This document shows, piece after piece, positions 25,317 through 40,395 of a DNA stretch of 64,000 bases. Location of the stretch: contig OZ024740.1 in assembly GCA_964016885.1 (NCBI GenBank), forward strand, positions 340,194,001 to 340,258,000, written 5' to 3'. Numbering within the stretch: the first letter of the stretch is position 1; each line of letters opens with the position of its first letter. This DNA comes from Eledone cirrhosa (taxonomy: Eukaryota). The notes beneath the pieces are model-generated. The model was not told the DNA's origin, made no database searches, and saw nothing but the letters and a program-made list of their open reading frames with translations. The position numbers and the translations under genes were made by a program.

Positions 25317-27096
25317 GGTAATACTAGAAGGTGTCATACCAAAAGATTGGTGCAGTAGCATCATTGTCAACTGCTACAAAGGTAAAGGTGATGCACTCGA
25401 TAGAGGAAACTATAGAGGTATAAAGCTGATGGACCAGGTCATGAAAGTAACAGAAAGAGTTATAGCACAGTTGATTTGGGTTTGTACCAGGAAGAGGCAC
25501 CACTGATGCCCTCTTCCTTGTGAGGCAGTTACAGGAAAAGTATCTAGCTAAAAGTAAGCCACTCTACCTGGCATTCGTCGATCTCGAGAAAGCCTTTGAC
25601 AGAGTTCCACGTGCTGTAATCTGGTGGGCTCTTAGAAAACTAGGAGTAGATGAATGGCTTGTGAAAGCTGTACAAGCCATGTATAGGGGAGCAGTCAGCA
25701 AAGTTAGGATTAGCAATGAATATAGCGAGGAATTTAGCGTACAGGTTGGGGTCCACCAGGGCTCTGTTCTTAGCCCTCTCCTGTTCATCATAGTCCTGCA
25801 GGCAATAACAGAGGAGTTTAAGACCAGATGCCCATGGGAACTCCTGTATGCTGATGACCTCGCACTTATAGCTGAATCTATGGTAGAACTAGAGAAGAAA
25901 TTCCAAACTTGGAAGCAGGGACTAGAAAGAAAGGGTCTCAAAGTCAACATGACAAAGACTAAGGTCCTTGTAAGTAGACGAGAAAACAGAACCCAGATCC
26001 CCTCAGGGAAATGGCCTTGCTCAGTATGTAGGAAAGGTGTAGGTAGGAACTCCATTCTCTGCCCCAAATGCAAACAATGGGTACACAAGAGATGTAGCGG
26101 GATCTCAGAAAGCTTAATTAAGAATGTAGGCTTCACATGCAGCAGCTGTACTGGGACAGCAAGCAGCAAACAACCACAGGAAACAAGTACCACCAATCTC
26201 TGGGAGGGCTCTGTAGAGACAGTAGACAGCTTCTGCTACCTAGGTGATTGAATTAGCAGCGGAGGTGGGTATTCAGAAAGTACAATAACTAGGGTAAGAA
26301 TGGGATGGAAGAAGTTCAGGGAACTACTGCCACTGCTAGCTGCAAAAGGCTTCTCCCTCAAAATGAAAGGCAGACTGTATGATGCGTGTATCCGAACAGC
26401 AATGTTACATGGTAGTAAGACCTGGGCGCTGAAGGTGGAAAACTTATGTAGATTAGAGAGAAACGAAGCCTTCATGCTCCGATGGATGTGTAACAGTAAT
26501 ATACGCGAACGACAAAGCATAAATGGATTGAGAGAGAGACTGAGCATAAGAGGAATCAAATGCTGTGTGCAGGAGAGGCGGATGCGTTGGTATGGACATG
26601 TGATGCGTATGAAGGATGACAGCTGCATAAAAAGGTGCAGAGCACTAGAAGTCGATGGAAACCGTGGAGTAGGGAGACCCAAGATGACCTGGGATGAGGT
26701 GATAAAAGCCGACCTTACCCAATTACACCTCTCAAAGGCGATGACACACGACCGTGACCTCTGGCGTCACGCAGTAATACAGAGTACCCGGCCTCCCATG
26801 GGTACAAGCTGAAGCATATAGACAATATGCCCCCACACCCTCCCACTGCAAGGTGGTCGTGGAGGTGCCACGGCAAAAAAGCACCCAGCCCACACTGTAA
26901 AGTGGACGTTTAGGCGCCACGAAAAAGCACCCAGCACTCACTGTAAATGAGGTTGGTGTTAGGAAGGGCATCCAGCTGTAGAAATCAAGCCAAATCAGTT
27001 CCTGTATGAGCAAGGCATGGTCAGCTGACCAGACACTGCCCACAACAGGACAACCCGTCTAACCCATGCTAGCATGGAAGAACGGACGTAAAACGG

Positions 27097-32392: not shown

Positions 32393-32626
32393 AATACGTT
32401 GATTAGTTCATAATTGTTTCTACTTTTGTTTCTACATCAATTATCCAGTACATTACTGGTACTTTATTTTATAGACCCCGTAAGGATGAAAGGCAAAGTT
32501 AATCCCGCCGAGGTTAACTTTGCCTTTCATCCTTACGGGGTCGATAAAATAAAGTACCAGTAATGTACTGCTTTATTGATGGCCTTGTGCCAAAAGTAGA
32601 AACAATTATGAACTAATCACCGTATT
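32393..32626. repeat. Inverted duplication of a SINE family 1 3' half plus flank
   Basis: Arms 32393-32502 and 32514-32626 around loop TCCCGCCGAGG. Confidence 0.88.
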
Positions 32627-33330: not shown

Positions 33331-33693
33331 TTATACTGACAAATAAAATATCAAAATGTCTACATAAAAATCATACACACTCACTCATATATATATACAC
33401 ATACAATGTCAGGTTTGGGCACAAAAGTTCAATCGAACAGTTGAGTAGTCCCATTGACTCCTGGAAGTCAATATTGACCACTTTGGAAAACACTGTAATA
33501 ACCTTTATGATCAAGATAGTAGCAAGCCCGAGTTATAACTCTGCTGAAAAGATATGCAATGTACAGTTTCATGACACTGGATGGCAACATCAAATATGGT
33601 GGCCTCGGTCTCCATTCTCACTGGCCTGCCACCATTTCTTTTGCCAGATACCTCTTGTCGTGTCCTCATCAACAGGGTTCTCTGTGGGTATGG

Positions 33694-33957
33694 TGTGGTG
33701 TGCGGTGGCCGGAAGCTGGGGAGTGCTCGACCGGAAGAGTGCTTGACCGGAAGGGTGCTTGACCGGAATGGGTGCTCGACCGGAAGGGCCAGCAGGTCGG
33801 CTTCTCTCTAGCGGTGATCAGAAACGTGGTGGACGCGAGTTTGGCAGCTCCCGGTATTAATGAGTTGGATCGTACGCACGTGGAAGAGGAGAAACCAGCC
33901 ATGGGATTTAGCGGCGCCTATGAAAACCAGTAAGTGAGATAATTCTTTCTAACCACA
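33694..33957 (+). repeat. 5' LTR (plus 11-nt TGTGGGTATGG extension from 33683)
   Basis: Aligns to 37637-37880; termini TGTGGT/ACCACA. Confidence 0.93.
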
Positions 33958-33969
33958 AGCTATTTCGGC
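33958..33969 (+). promoter_or_regulatory. Atypical primer-binding site complementary to tRNA-Phe nt 1-12
   Basis: AGCTATTTCGGC abuts the LTR end; reverse complement GCCGAAATAGCT equals the 5' end of metazoan tRNA-Phe(GAA). Confidence 0.8.
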
Positions 33970-34099
33970 ACTGGAAACTGAGATCTGATAAAAAAAAAAA
34001 ATAAATAAATAAAAAACTTTCTCGAAAACAAAACTACTGGAAAAACAGAGAGGAGTGTGTTGTGTTTTTTTTTTATTATGTACTGCAAGACAAATTAGG

Positions 34100-34844
34100 A
34101 TGGCGATGAGACTACAAACGAGCAAAGTGATTAGGGTATTTACCGGTGAAGGCGATGTCGCTTGGCTGCGAAAAGTCCGGCTGGTCGCAAGTTTACAGAA
34201 GATTGAAGATGTGGCTGGCCTCATGGCACTGTACCTTGAGGGGGACGCGTTGGTACTCTTCCTTGAAATGGATGAACACAGCCAAAGGGATGCGCAAAAG
34301 ATCGAGAGGCGCATGATGGAAGCGTTCGCGGAGGGACCGTTAGCCGCTTTTGCTAAGCTTGGCAAGAATTAGATGGAACGGTGAACGCGTTGACATTTTC
34401 GCACGGAAATACGGCGATTGGCCATGCTGGCATTAGGTGGAATGCGAATGCACGGTGCGGTTGGCGTTCATAAATGGATTTCCAGACGACATAGTGGTGA
34501 AACTGCAGCAAGTCCCGGGTTACAAAGAAATGGAGATGCGTGCACTGGTGGAGCAAGCCCGCATCATAGCAGAAGATGCCTAGAAGAGTGTCACAGCGAT
34601 GGCAACACAGAGGCCCAAGACAGCTAGCAGTGAAAGGGAGGCTACCACGGCACGCGGTCGCCCGCGAACGTTTAGAGGTCGCTGTTTTAGGTGTCAGGGC
34701 CCGCACATGGCGAGAGACTGTAGAGAATCAAGGCCAGAAATAATATGCTACCGGTGTATGCGACCAGGCCACATCGCTACTAAGTGCGACCAGGGAAACG
34801 ATCCAAGGGGAACTACTGTGCCGGTAGTTGCCCCTTATGAGTAG
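34100..34844 (+). pseudogene. gag: gag (frameshifted) with two zinc knuckles
   Basis: FTGEGDVAWL..., LYLEGDAL; CFRCQGPHMARDC and CYRCMRPGHIATKC. Confidence 0.85.
34793..34836 (+). promoter_or_regulatory. -1 ribosomal frameshift signal (gag-pol)
   Basis: G GGA AAC heptamer in gag frame, 5-nt spacer, hairpin AAGGGGAACTACTG-TGC-CGGTAGTTGCCCCTT; protease ORF lies in the -1 frame. Confidence 0.75.
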
Positions 34845-34855
34845 AGGCGCTGCTC

Positions 34856-37623
34856 ATGGTGGAAGTCTTCGTGAGGGGAAAGCCACAACGAGCCCTTGTG
34901 GACACGGGCTGTACGACGACACTGGTAACCGCGGGGATGGCGCAGAGGTGGAGAGGAAAGAGCAGCGTAAGGGCAGTCAACGGTAGGAAAATTGAATGCC
35001 GAGGTCGCAGCAAGGTGGAGATGGCGGTACGGGGAAAGAAAATAAGGCTTTCTGCCATCGTAGTCGACAACATGGTGGATGGGATCGGCATGGTTATGGG
35101 CATAGACGCAATTGGCCGTCTAGGTGTCACAGTGAACAACGTCAGTGTGTCGTTTGGCGGCGCCGCATCGGTATGCGACAGGAGAACCAGAAGGCCCACG
35201 AGGAGAAATACCCCGCTTACACTGTGCAGGACAAAGACTTCAAGGCCGTGTTCGATGGGCAGCGATGGGTTGTTGAGTGGTACTGGAAGGAAGAACCACC
35301 AACACTGAAGACCAAAGTGGGCTGCTATCAACACACATTGAAGGGAGACATTAGGAGCGAGAAGTAGAGAGATGGATTGAAGAGGGCATACTGCTTCCCT
35401 GGAAAGAGGAGGTGAAGTGCGGAGTATTGCCATTAATGGCAGTGGAGCAACCCACGAAGAATAAGGTGAGGCCGGTACTGGACTTTCGGGAGCTGAACGA
35501 GTACGTGTCATGCCACATGGGTGACGAGGTCACGGATGTCTGTGGGGAAACCCTGCGTGAGTGGAGACGCATGACGGGAGATTCCGCAATCGTAGATCTA
35601 AAGTCGGCATACTTGCAATTGCATATAGATGAGAAGCTCTGGCAGTATCAGCTGGTCAGGTATAAGGGCCGGACATATTGCTTGACCAGGCTCGGTTTCA
35701 GGCTGAGCTCCGCACCGAAGATCATGGCGGCGGTCCTCAACACCATTCTGGGAAAGGCCAACAAGATGAAGAGGGCCACTAATTCTTACATTGACGACAT
35801 CCTAGTAGCCGAGTCTGTAGTGTCGGCGGCGGAGGTCACGAGCCATTTACAGGGGTATGGACTGGCTGCGAAGCCGTCAGAAGCGTTGGAGGGAGGAGCC
35901 GTGCTGGGACTTAGGCTACGGTGAGACAGGACGGGCGTCTTAGTATTCCAGAAGGGAAATGAAGTTCCAGAACTGGGCCCAAGTATGAGTAGGCGGGAGA
36001 TTTTCTCGGTGTGGAAAGTTGGTAGGTTACTACCCGATTGCGGGGTGGCTCTGGACGGCATGCAGCTATGTCAAGAGATGAGCGGGAGGGGTGACAAGGA
36101 GTGATAGAGTGGGAGAGAGGACGGTAGCCATGATACAGGAGATCGTAGAGAGGGTGAAGGCCAACGACCCAGTGCGGGGACGCTGGTATGTTCCCAAATT
36201 GCAGAGCGGGACCATATGGTGCGATGCCAGCAGCATAGCGCTGGGTGTCACGTTGGAGATATAAGGTGCTGAGGTCGAGGATGCAGCCTGGCTTAGGAAG
36301 AAGGACGACTGCAACCACATCAATGTGACCGAGCTGGACGCAGTGTTGAGAGGGGTGAACTTCGCCCTGAGGTGGGGACTGCGCACCATCAAGATACGCA
36401 CCAACTCGGCTACTGTATTCGGATGAGTGACATCAGTGCTCACCAGTGAGAAGAGAGGGCGAACGAGAGGGGTGGCGGAGATGCTGATAAAGTGCCGCCT
36501 GGGAACTTTAGGAGAGCTGGCCACCGAGTTCGACCTGAGGCTGAGTGTAGTTTTCGTGCCCTCAGAGAAAAATAGGGTGGACGTCTTAACCAGGGTGAAG
36601 TAAGCCTGGATGGAAGCGCCGGAGGAGGTAGAAGAGGAGATAGCTGCTGTGTGTCAGCTGACCAAGTCGGATCTGAAATGGTTGCATGACATGCACCACA
36701 TGGGAGTGGATAGAACTCTGTTCCTAGCCAGGAGAATCGACTCGGACGTTAACAGACACAGTGTTCAAAGAGTGGTTAGAGGCTGCGTCCGATGTCAGTC
36801 CATTGATCCCGCCCCGGATGTGCACGAAACGGGAAGCCTCCTGGTGGATCGTGACTGGAAGCGATTCGCGGTGGATGTAACACACTACCGACAGGGAATG
36901 TAGCTCTCGATGGTCGACTGTGGACCGGGACGGATGGCGATATGGAGGGAGATGAAGACTGGAACAGCCGAGGAAATCATGTGGACATTGAGAGAGGTGT
37001 TCTTGGAGCGGAGCCCTGTGGACGAACTGCTGATGGACAACAGCGCAGCATTCCGCTCGGAGGCGCTGAGGGAGATGCTCGATGGATGGAAGGTGGACCG
37101 TTTCTTCAGAGCAGCATACAGGCCAAGCAGAAATGGAATCGTGGAGCGACACCACCGGACGATCAAAGCAATGGCGGAGCGGGCCCACATCTCACCAATG
37201 GAGGCAGTGTTCTGGTACAACATGTCCCCTCGGATGGGACAGGTTGAGGAATCGGTGCCACACAGAGCAGTATTCAGATACGAGTGGCGGAACCCCTGCA
37301 TGCCACCACAACGGCCAGTGGGGAGAGAGAATGCATTCGTACAGGTGGGCGAAGAAGTCTGGGTTAAGCCCCCAGATGCACGTTGCACATCTCAATGAGG
37401 AAGGGGAACGGTGACGGCCGTAAATTCGCAGAACAATGTATCCGTGGACAGAGTACCACGTCATGTCCTGGACGTCCGTAGAATCACTGTATCAACGGAC
37501 TCCGAGGAAGAGGAAACCCAAAGTGCCGCCCCAACACTGCGGAGATGGCCAAGAAGTCGCAAACCACCAACCTGGACACCAGACTTTCATATGCAGAAGG
37601 ACGAGGGGGAAATTGATCCTTGA
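34856..37623 (+). pseudogene. pol: pol: aspartic protease, RT, RNase H, integrase (disrupted)
   Basis: ALVDTGC; RPVLDFRELN, DLKSAYLQ, YIDD; WCDAS, HINVTELDAV; HDMHH..CVRC, AVDV, LMDN, NGIVER. Confidence 0.92.
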
Positions 37624-37636
37624 GATCAGGGGAGCA

Positions 37637-37880
37637 TGTGGTGTGCGGTGGCCGGAAGCTGGGGAGTGCTCGACCGGAAGAGTGCTTGACCGGAATGGGT
37701 GCTCGACTGGAAGGGCCAGCAGGTCAGCCTCTCTCTAGCGGTGATCAGGAACGTGGTGGACGCGAGTTTGGCAGCTCCCGGTGTTAATGAGTTGGATCGT
37801 ACGCATGTGGAAGAGGAGAAACCAGCCATGGGATTTAGCGGCGCCTATGAAAAGTGGTGAGATAGCTTTTTCTAACCACA
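37637..37880 (+). repeat. 3' LTR
   Basis: Follows the PPT; one fewer 16-bp internal repeat than the 5' LTR. Confidence 0.95.
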
Positions 37881-38688
37881 TTCTCACAACACAACTGAAC
37901 CTACTGTGATCAGGGAACATAAGACAACCTACGCGATATGGAACCAGCTTAGTCTCCACCCTACTGATATCCATTCCCTTCTCCTCTGTCACTGTCTAGT
38001 TCACCCTAAACAAATGGGACGCCATCCAGTGCAACATGACCTCGGGCAGTCTGGTGCACCGGCTTGAACAGCACTGTGGTGTGTTTTTGCTCAGCCTCCC
38101 AGCCCTACAGTAGTGCTTGGCTCAACATAGGACCATCACTCTTGACTGGCACTCAGCTGGGCAGCACCTGTTTGTGCATCAATGTGTGAGCCTCACAAAT
38201 GCTGCAGCAGATCTATTCTGGATTTTTTCGACCTCCACACAGTCATGCCGTTATAGTGTTGACCACCTCCCATGTCATGCTGCCCTCAACGAAATCATAA
38301 AGCCTGACCTGGATGCTACAGGCTTTCTTTCTCAGCTCGAGGGAACAGCAAAAGACCAGACAATATGACAATCTTCCTGTTCCGCAGTGGTAGGCTCCTC
38401 ATCTAGGATGACACACTCCGATACCTTCTCCAGCAGCAACCTGGTGTGTCGAGCCTGTGGCAGTGAAGACTTCCGGCGTTCTTGACCCCCGGACCACATC
38501 CCCACTCTCTGTTATCGGGGCAAAATTGGCTACCTGCAAGTGCGAGCCTCACGAGATGGAGTGGATATTCAAGCACATCGCCCTCGCCATCCTCCAGGGT
38601 AACGTCTTCTCCATTCTGTCTGGGGGACCACGAGGCAGACTAACTCTTAAACAGCAAATAGTAAATACAGATCTTACACACATATTAA

Positions 38689-39299: not shown

Positions 39300-40395
39300 C
39301 ATCATGGAGCGATGACTAATCTCTCGGAGGCTGAAGTCTCAAAAGCAATTGAAAAGCTCAAATGTGGAAAGGCCACTAGGAATGGTGAAATTCGGTCCAA
39401 GCCTTAAATAGAGAAGATATTCTCTGGCTGATTCGTGTGTGCCAATTAGCCTGGATCTCTGGAAAGACATCTAAGCAATGAAAAGCGGGAGTGATAATCC
39501 CAATTTTCAAAAGGGGAGATAAGAGGTATTGCTTCAATTATAAAGAAATCCCCTTGTTAAGTCTCCCCAGTCAAGGCTATGTTAAGTGTCTGGCAAAGAG
39601 ATATAAGGAGATTGTCGAGTCCAAGTAAGCTGATAAACAGTGTGGTTTTCACAGTGGATGTAGCACAGCCAACCAAATATTCACACTGCAGCAAGTTGAA
39701 ATCGTGGGAATACAGCCAAGAGGTGTGCGCTTGCTTTGTAGACCTCGAAAAGGCATACAACCACATTCCACGGGACCTGCTGTGGAAGGTTCTGCAGGAG
39801 TATGGGATCAATGGACAGCTTCTTGTTACTCTGATGTCTCTATATAGATGCCTTAGTATTTGTGCTTGGATAAATGGTGCTAAATTGAAACCATTCAATG
39901 TGGGCGTCAGACTCTGCAAAGAGTGTGTATTGTCACCTCTTCTGCTCATAATCTTCATGAACTGGATTGACACACGCAGCTGGGTTGGAAGAGATGTCAC
40001 AACTGGTGAGTGTAGGATCAGTCGGCTGGAATTTGTGGACGACATGATATTAGTCAACTTGTCAGAAGGTGATCTTTGACATGCACTCAATAGATTTGAT
40101 GCTGAGTGCTGCACGACTGGAAGAAAAATCAGTGGTGCGAAGGCTGAGAGACTTTTCCTCTCAAGGAAGCCTGTGCAGTGCACCCTACATGTGAGTGGAG
40201 CTCCACTGAGTGGGGAATGACCAAAAGAAAACGATCACGAATACAAGGAAGACCTGGGCAGAAGAGATGACAGCTGATCTCAAATCGCTGAAACTCAGTG
40301 GAAATGATGAAGGATTGCAACATGTGGAGAGATGCTGTGCTGAAAAAGGACCCATCCAACCCATGCAATCATGGAAAAACAGACATAAAGATGAT
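39300..40395 (+). mobile_element. Decayed RTE LINE RT fragment joined to a 3' tail
   Basis: CFVDLEKAYN, CVLSPLL, FVDD; RKTW and tail at 40240-40395. Confidence 0.8.

Follow-up and report, generated by a model that had tools for sequence, protein, structure and literature searches.

A decayed LTR retrotransposon in the genome of Eledone cirrhosa was found to carry, directly 3' of a 5' LTR ending in ...AACCACA, the 12-mer AGCTATTTCGGC, which is complementary to nucleotides 1-12 of the host tRNA-Phe(GAA). The element is 4.2 kb long and occupies positions 33683-37880 of the window, the 64,000-nt stretch of contig OZ024740.1 that was analyzed. The site is a real feature and occurs throughout the lineage of the element. 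We read it, with a probability of about 0.6, as a primer-binding site (PBS) on which the minus strand would be primed by a 12-nt piece of the tRNA-Phe 5' end, freed by the RNase H of the element after annealing.

Within the window, AGCTATTTCGGC had a single match at up to one mismatch, where 0.06 were expected. The 15-nt tRNA-Phe 5' end assumed in the initial sequence-only reading was found in 247 exact copies in the host genome, versus none for a control, and most of the matches listed lay in one tandem array; ARAGORN predicted a tRNA-Phe at the match in eight of ten loci tested. The host tRNA-Phe(GAA) gene begins GCCGAAATAGCT-CAG and is preceded by A. Pairing is complete (12/12) over tRNA nucleotides 1-12 and does not extend into the leader, which would need a T after the site. 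It also stops before nucleotide 13: nucleotides 13-15 (CAG) would need CTG before the site, where ACA was found in 31 of 32 family representatives and ACG in one. Both the match to the tRNA 5' end and its termination at the LTR border, as proposed in the sequence-only reading, were hence borne out. Other host tRNA genes sampled, comprising only Thr, Ala/Val/Asp-like, Ile, and Asn genes, had at least four mismatches to the site; the Rfam tRNA search of the host sampled 16 loci, and the host tRNA set is incomplete. The duplex of site and tRNA was calculated at -18.7 kcal/mol, versus approximately 10 kcal/mol for opening nucleotides 1-12 in a fold of the unmodified tRNA, the latter figure being rough because the modelled fold is not a cloverleaf. 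Separately, a long tandem array of tRNA-Phe and tRNA-Asn genes, many with substitutions, was observed with a period of ~1.26 kb (G000:C4:117.36-117.54 Mb, loci L035-L050).

The window element showed the features of an Ortervirales-like LTR retrotransposon, including paired direct LTRs with TG...CA ends, a target-site duplication (TSD), a polypurine tract, and gag-pol with reverse transcriptase (RT) and RNase H as well as a DDE integrase (Table 1). Of the 244 columns in the alignment of the two LTRs, 234 show the same base in both, and the coding region contains five frame changes and about a dozen stops relative to a homologue.

Table 1. Features of the LTR retrotransposon in the E. cirrhosa window (window coordinates).
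Feature	Positions	Strand	Evidence and remarks
5' target-site duplication TTCTC	33678..33682	+	Same as 37881-37885; other copies diverge upstream of 33683
5' LTR, 275 nt, TG...CA	33683..33957	+	Tandem ACCGGAAG repeats; donor-like AGTAAGT ~25 nt before LTR end
12-nt primer-binding site (putative)	33958..33969	+	Adjoins LTR without gap; complement of tRNA-Phe(GAA) nt 1-12
gag, broken, two Cys/His knuckles near end	34101..34840 (limits approximate)	+	tblastn with homologue P0041 from 34118; zf-CCHC in P0041
Aspartic protease region	34841..35305	+	PF13975, E 9.5e-08
Reverse transcriptase (YIDD), broken	35355..36050	+	PF00078, E 2e-04
DUF7047 then RNase H, decayed in window copy	36001..36620 (limits approximate)	+	Domain order of homologues; four acidic RNase H residues invariant in 46/46 homologues
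Integrase, HHCC + DDE, broken; no GPY/F motif seen in homologues	36620..37611 (start approximate)	+	PF00665, E 0.0037
Polypurine tract, short	37628..37636	+	AGGGGAG-CA in window; AGGGGGG-CG in many copies
3' LTR, 244 nt, without first 11 nt	37637..37880	+	LTR-LTR alignment
3' target-site duplication TTCTC	37881..37885	+	Matches 33678-33682

The LTR-LTR repeat starts at 33694, and the true 5' LTR start was placed at 33683, up to which other copies share sequence. Most other 3' LTRs begin with these 11 nt, so the window 3' LTR has a private 11-nt deletion. It is the true start that reveals the 5-bp TSD. The flank shared upstream had suggested a composite element, which was rejected once this flank was recognized as the true LTR start. 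The LTR border is real, since the 3' LTR also ends in ...AACCACA and is followed by TTCTC, and this agrees with the original placement of the 12-mer directly after the LTR without a TGG. Among six other copies with LTRs paired by coordinates, a 5-bp TSD was exact in two, agreed in four of five letters in two, was absent in one, and was unreadable in one.

Additional motifs were observed in the LTRs. The U3 region contains 16-nt tandem repeats (33709-33790) that include ACCGGAAG, which we take to be an ETS-type binding motif. A splice-donor-like G/AGTAAG lies ~22-26 nt before the LTR end in the window (33930-33939) and in L060, L064, L073, L075, L078, and L079; it is common to several otherwise unrelated host LTR groups and is possibly a U1 site. 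Internal deletions that kept the LTR and the site were seen in L060, L064, L054, and L002/L080, which may be non-autonomous derivatives.

In the host genome, CA followed by the 12-mer occurred 527 times, versus once for a control. Of the first 30 such loci, 29 were element-related and fell into five LTR groups without mutual BLAST similarity. Copies picked by LTR similarity were mappable in 29 of 30 cases, where 23 had an exact site and six had one mismatch. Copies were also picked without motif selection, using the Gag of a distant relative as the query; 30 of the 150 listed were fetched, mostly from one large family, and all 30 carried the site (23 exact, six with one mismatch, and one with two). 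A canonical PBS starting with TGG 0-3 nt after the LTR was found in none of these 30 copies, and retention of the 12-mer at the LTR border in other genomic copies was confirmed. Within the window family, divergence was 1.7% in the site versus 0.9% in the next 19 nt; the site was not more conserved. A C at the seventh place of the site was not enriched in the host (17 matches versus 38 for the control), and the 15 such loci fetched included one element, whose site differs by a single-letter mutation. Most host loci in which the middle letters differ are chance matches, and they were rejected as true variants. Gag matches ~10 kb apart were also noted on one host sequence (G000:C994).

At E <= 1e-20, a minimum of 500 longer homologues of the RT were found, the named ones being from crustaceans and molluscs; a homologue was present in Argonauta, and a profile search added a sea spider and Trichuris. 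With an alignment of 46 Pol sequences, 73 metagenome loci of 27-57% identity were obtained, whereas no relative was found in IMG/VR. ARAGORN detected no tRNA in the window or in these 73 loci. The exact 12-mer lay on the coding strand in 12 of the 73, versus none for three control patterns. Relatives were considered readable if their gag start was locatable and preceded by 120 nt or more of sequence; the 35 loci that lacked one or the other were left out of the resulting count of 38. Upstream of gag, AGCTA-nnnn-G[G/T]C was found in 36 of the 38 readable Pol-picked relatives, and a TGG-starting PBS 0-3 nt after the LTR in none of these Gag-anchored sequences; the presence of a 12-mer-type site at the border in RT relatives was thus upheld. 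The near-identical L175 and L180 have CGCTATCTGTGC after CA instead, which may be a decayed CTA-type site or a switch to the 5' end of another tRNA. The site was flush with the LTR in all three relatives that had a comparable separate 3' LTR (L131, L144, and L150). Tandem or circular arrangements, with the site after both LTR copies, were observed in L122, L130, and L143.

The relatives allowed the site to be compared with tRNA-Phe variation. A total of 47 loci had the site, including 14 of the CTA type, 12 TTC, 11 CGC, four CCC, two CAC, and four others, and the 45 with enough RT-RNase H sequence formed 26 families (<75% RT-RNase H identity). Across these families, the most variable columns were those facing tRNA nucleotides 5-6, and one family each differed in the columns facing nucleotides 2, 4, and 7; columns facing nucleotides 1, 3, and 8-12 were set by the search pattern and are uninformative by themselves. 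Conservation ended at the base facing nucleotide 1, the next column being A in 14, C in eight, T in three, and G in one of the 26 families.

Scanning public contigs by pattern yielded 91 loci, with 80 of at least 127 genome-contig matches fetched. The tRNA-Phe(GAA) 5' ends found were GCCGAAATAGCT (L262), GCCTAGATAGCT (L209), GCCGCGATAGCT in five tandem copies on one contig (L226-228/242/243), and GCCGTGATAGCT (L279, L286, and archaeal genes). These ends, obtained independently of the elements from records that are unrelated to the metagenome relatives and not host-matched, are exactly complementary to four of the five main site variants; none of five tested records with such genes contained an element. 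For the CCC variant (four loci, two families) and for the rare forms of L123, L163, and L175/L180, the 91 loci included no matching tRNA. Of the 64 forms that GCCnnnATAGCT allows, seven occurred, and the chance of three of four variants (the starting form excluded) landing among six of 63 is ~0.002 by hand arithmetic that ignores base bias. Several eukaryote-like tRNA-Phe genes (L226-228, L242-243, L262, L239, L279, L286, and L209) lay on contigs of bacterial metagenome-assembled genomes or on a viral record, one set forming a 3.7-kb tandem array; these genes likely represent host contamination.

Family pairs from the same assembly shared a variant in 11 of 16 cases, versus 81 of 309 between assemblies (permutation p 0.0047). 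The 16 pairs come from four assemblies, three of which are uniform and one of which has three variants, with one of its six pairs agreeing. Two-letter switches were observed inside four well-supported clades of a 27-row tree in which seven of 24 inner branches are well supported. Ancestry explains part of the pattern, since one supported deep clade of seven families is nearly all TTC (six of seven). These observations are consistent with a site that would be either recopied from the host tRNA or kept in agreement with it by selection, and that is in part inherited by descent.

In the proposed mechanism, tRNA-Phe or one of its longer 5' fragments would be packaged, its acceptor and D stems would open, and it would anneal to the site, probably with the help of the Gag zinc knuckles. 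The site pairs with the extreme 5' end of the tRNA, and the 3' direction of the tRNA points toward the LTR. A paired 3'-OH at or just before nucleotide 12 is required, since nucleotide 13 onward is mismatched; a cut or trim at U12/C13 would supply it, by analogy with the action of the Tf1 RNase H on an RNA 5'-end duplex at the PBS. The RT would then put its first base opposite the LTR terminal A, giving a blunt CA end, and plus-strand synthesis would copy the primer to its first nucleotide and run off. Such a run-off at the primer end would explain both the end of the match at G1 and the fit of the site to the tRNA-Phe of another host. Alternatively, the primer could be 10-11 nt long, with the first one or two letters of the site forming an integrase-processed spacer.

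RNase H leaves 3'-OH ends, and these, together with the Tf1/Tj1 geometry and a length that is fixed across hosts, make an RNase H cut the preferred source of the primer end. The four catalytic residues of RNase H were invariant in 46 of 46 homologues; this conservation is necessary for primer cutting and not specific to it, as every LTR element needs an intact RNase H. According to the available text of PMC7472051, retroviruses copy the primer back into the PBS, and Ty1 and Ty3 do not. The host-linked switches of the site suggest the retroviral way of copying.

The main rival, which we rate as doubtful and still a serious contender, keeps the same site and primer and has the 3'-OH made by the host: a cellular nuclease would trim a pre-existing 5' tRNA-Phe fragment that is packaged, or would produce one of 12 nt from the start. 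All the sequence data on the site agree with this equally well, and 5' tRNA fragments are common in animals. However, the common fragments measure at least ~14-16 nt, and the ends produced by stress nucleases are cyclic phosphates, from which RT cannot extend. Additionally, a fixed 12-nt length in 26 families of different hosts is easier to account for if the element sets the cut.

It is unlikely that the site serves as an auxiliary tRNA-Phe anchor, for packaging, dimerization, or as one half of a bipartite PBS, with priming at some other place by the tRNA CCA end or a different primer. Ty1/Ty3 are known to bind tRNA in a bipartite manner, the site begins with the palindrome AGCT, and GGTGGCCGGAA near the window LTR start could pair imperfectly with the 3' strand of tRNA-Phe. 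Priming must start at the LTR edge, however, and this edge is occupied by the site with zero gap and has TGG in none of the 38 readable relatives; nor is any tRNA-like complement conserved upstream across 51 elements.

Self-priming of the Tf1 type, where the 5' end of the element's own transcript would pair with the site and the tRNA match would be incidental, is very improbable. Its geometry would be the same as that given for Tf1/Tj1 in the accessible text of PMC4600332, and weak partial complements exist, the best in the window reaching -12.2 kcal/mol. In contrast, at least three mismatches to the site complement were present within 400 nt upstream in 50 of 51 elements (four in the window copy), and in just four of 51 was the best duplex stronger than every one of 10 shuffles. 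The same site is also common to unrelated LTRs, and its variants follow tRNA-Phe sequences. At the sequence level, this alternative, which had been raised at the outset, did not displace the tRNA match. The single exception, a near-complement in L156, was rejected as a self-primer: it is not a tRNA, and its position ~330 nt upstream falls beyond the apparent LTR. Least probable of all is a chance match or a conserved protein-binding or integrase-end motif unrelated to tRNA: integrase end recognition could keep ACA-AGCTA, and TAGCTCAG at nucleotides 8-15 is common to many tRNAs, but the 12/12 match ends exactly at nucleotide 1, the other sampled host tRNA genes are as distant as noted above, and multi-letter variants coincide with other tRNA-Phe 5' ends.

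Drosophila copia and yeast Ty5 use half-tRNA priming, and the self-primer of Tf1 is 11 nt long. Surveys, as represented by the available text of PMC6317226, list whole tRNAs, half tRNAs, and self-primers as primer types. Half-tRNA priming is described in the accessible parts of PMC6317226 and PMC10886601 for the Osser, Bryco, Gymco-II, and Bianca lineages of copia and for fungal Copia and Helenus, and is reported there only in Ty1/copia. As in half-tRNA priming, the putative primer is a 5' piece of a host tRNA and not its CCA end, and the site is next to the LTR. In those elements, however, cleavage falls in the anticodon stem of the tRNA and the site is complementary to an internal part of it, as far as these source texts go, whereas here the site pairs with nucleotides 1-12 including the 5' terminus, and the tRNA is tRNA-Phe; the term Phe does not occur in the available text of PMC10886601 on anticodon-loop primers. 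The best pairing at nucleotides 1-12 also differs from a Hemivirus-type PBS (anticodon stem-loop, cut near nucleotides 39-40), and the order protease-RT-RNase H-integrase differs from that of copia, where integrase precedes RT.

With Tf1, Tj1, and sushi, the element shares the pairing of the extreme 5' end of an RNA with a short site at the LTR edge and the need for a cut (PMC4600332, available text); a role for RNase H in the Tf1-type cut is given in the title of a paper cited there. It differs from them in that the putative primer comes from a tRNA in trans, with no LTR complement and no chromodomain match. Judged from sequence, the feature is best read as a variant of tRNA-fragment priming with a Tf1-like geometry. 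No description of a PBS complementary to the first 12 nt of a tRNA was found in the literature searched, a scope outside which Repbase and subscription journals fall, and a Repbase entry may already mention such a site. Three papers contain the literal 12-mer, and by their titles they deal with tRNA or RNA methyltransferases.

The assignment to a Gypsy lineage in the sequence-only reading could not be established. Homologues have protease, RT, DUF7047, RNase H, and integrase domains, and the RT appears to be deep-branching. PF17917 and PF17919 had no match in any of three proteins, and the RT showed ~25% identity, at E 0.001 at best, to 25 host PF17917 loci. The GPY/F motif, common and not universal in Metaviridae, was absent from the last 170 aa of all five gag-pol homologues examined. 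The element resembles Ty3/Gypsy (Metaviridae) in its protease-RT-RNase H-integrase order, TG...CA LTRs, 5-bp TSD, and Gag knuckles, and differs in having no TGG-type PBS, PF17917/PF17919, or GPY/F. The same order is also found in BEL, Troyka, and retroviruses, according to the available text of PMC12440569. The nearest atlas clusters were unnamed or labelled Euglenozoa.

Among other groups, the Troyka elements (Kuafuorterviruses) are likewise described, in the text available, as a deep-branching LTR lineage, mostly of aquatic animals, with the order protease-RT-RNase H-integrase and no GPY/F. Membership was rejected on termini, TSD, and RT motif, since Troyka elements of 5-6 kb are described there with CG...CG ends, 3-bp TSDs, and I/V/LADD, whereas the present element has TG...CA, a 5-bp TSD, a YIDD-type motif, and a length of 4.2 kb. 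The best PDB matches of Pol were retroviral integrases (MMTV, E 1e-16) and RTs (foamy virus and HIV-2, ~1e-8), a rank that does not indicate kinship because the PDB is rich in retroviral chains. Odin and lokiretroviruses have a tether domain and a second RNase H in the accessible text of PMC9040795; unlike these and retroviruses, the element has no env that could be seen. The RT motifs resemble those of DIRS RT in a supplementary alignment, as compared by eye only. A DIRS type, which would have a tyrosine recombinase and no TSD-flanked LTR pair, was rejected given the DDE integrase, LTRs, and TSD. A search of the host for a tyrosine recombinase, to serve as a DIRS reference, gave no match. In the searchable supplements of PMC11673190, PMC6238403, and PMC8556966, the lineage motifs were absent, with only a DIRS row of the first matching RPVLD; a match to a MolGy/PolGy clade may still exist.

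We consider the element a candidate member of an unclassified LTR lineage marked by DUF7047. A broader proposal is tentative and would sooner fail than hold: that a fourth retroelement priming mode, equivalent to Tf1 self-priming but acting in trans, with the element's RNase H detaching the first 12 nt of the host tRNA-Phe, may be the hallmark of a large unclassified LTR lineage with a DUF7047-bearing Pol, DIRS-like RT motifs, and a retrovirus-like integrase. This lineage would occur in molluscs, crustaceans, sea spiders, and nematodes, would lie outside Ty3/Gypsy, and would have its PBS rewritten from the tRNA of each new host.

If the 12-nt primer is real, a primer of only the first 12 tRNA nucleotides would fit none of the three primer types in the available text of PMC6317226 cleanly. 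It would link tRNA priming with self-priming and suggest how either might have arisen from the other. A very short 5' tRNA fragment would also have a defined biochemical function, and the tRNA fragments that target these elements are predicted to be 5' and not 3' ones. Pipelines that seek only tRNA 3' ends, as in the methods text available for PMC13524379, would score this common invertebrate lineage as PBS-less. The site also serves to mark the lineage, and it might tag the tRNA-Phe of the host.

Other repeats were observed around the element in the window. It was inserted inside another decayed retroelement, represented by flanks at 33400-33677 and 37886-38680, and the downstream flank, when translated, gives fragments similar to a restriction-like endonuclease region that we presume to be the C-terminal one of CRE-type non-LTR elements. 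Remnants of decayed LINE RTs were also found, as was a dispersed repeat with a palindrome (arms 32435-32507 and 32509-32581), at 25475-26812, 39561-40234, and 32393-32626.
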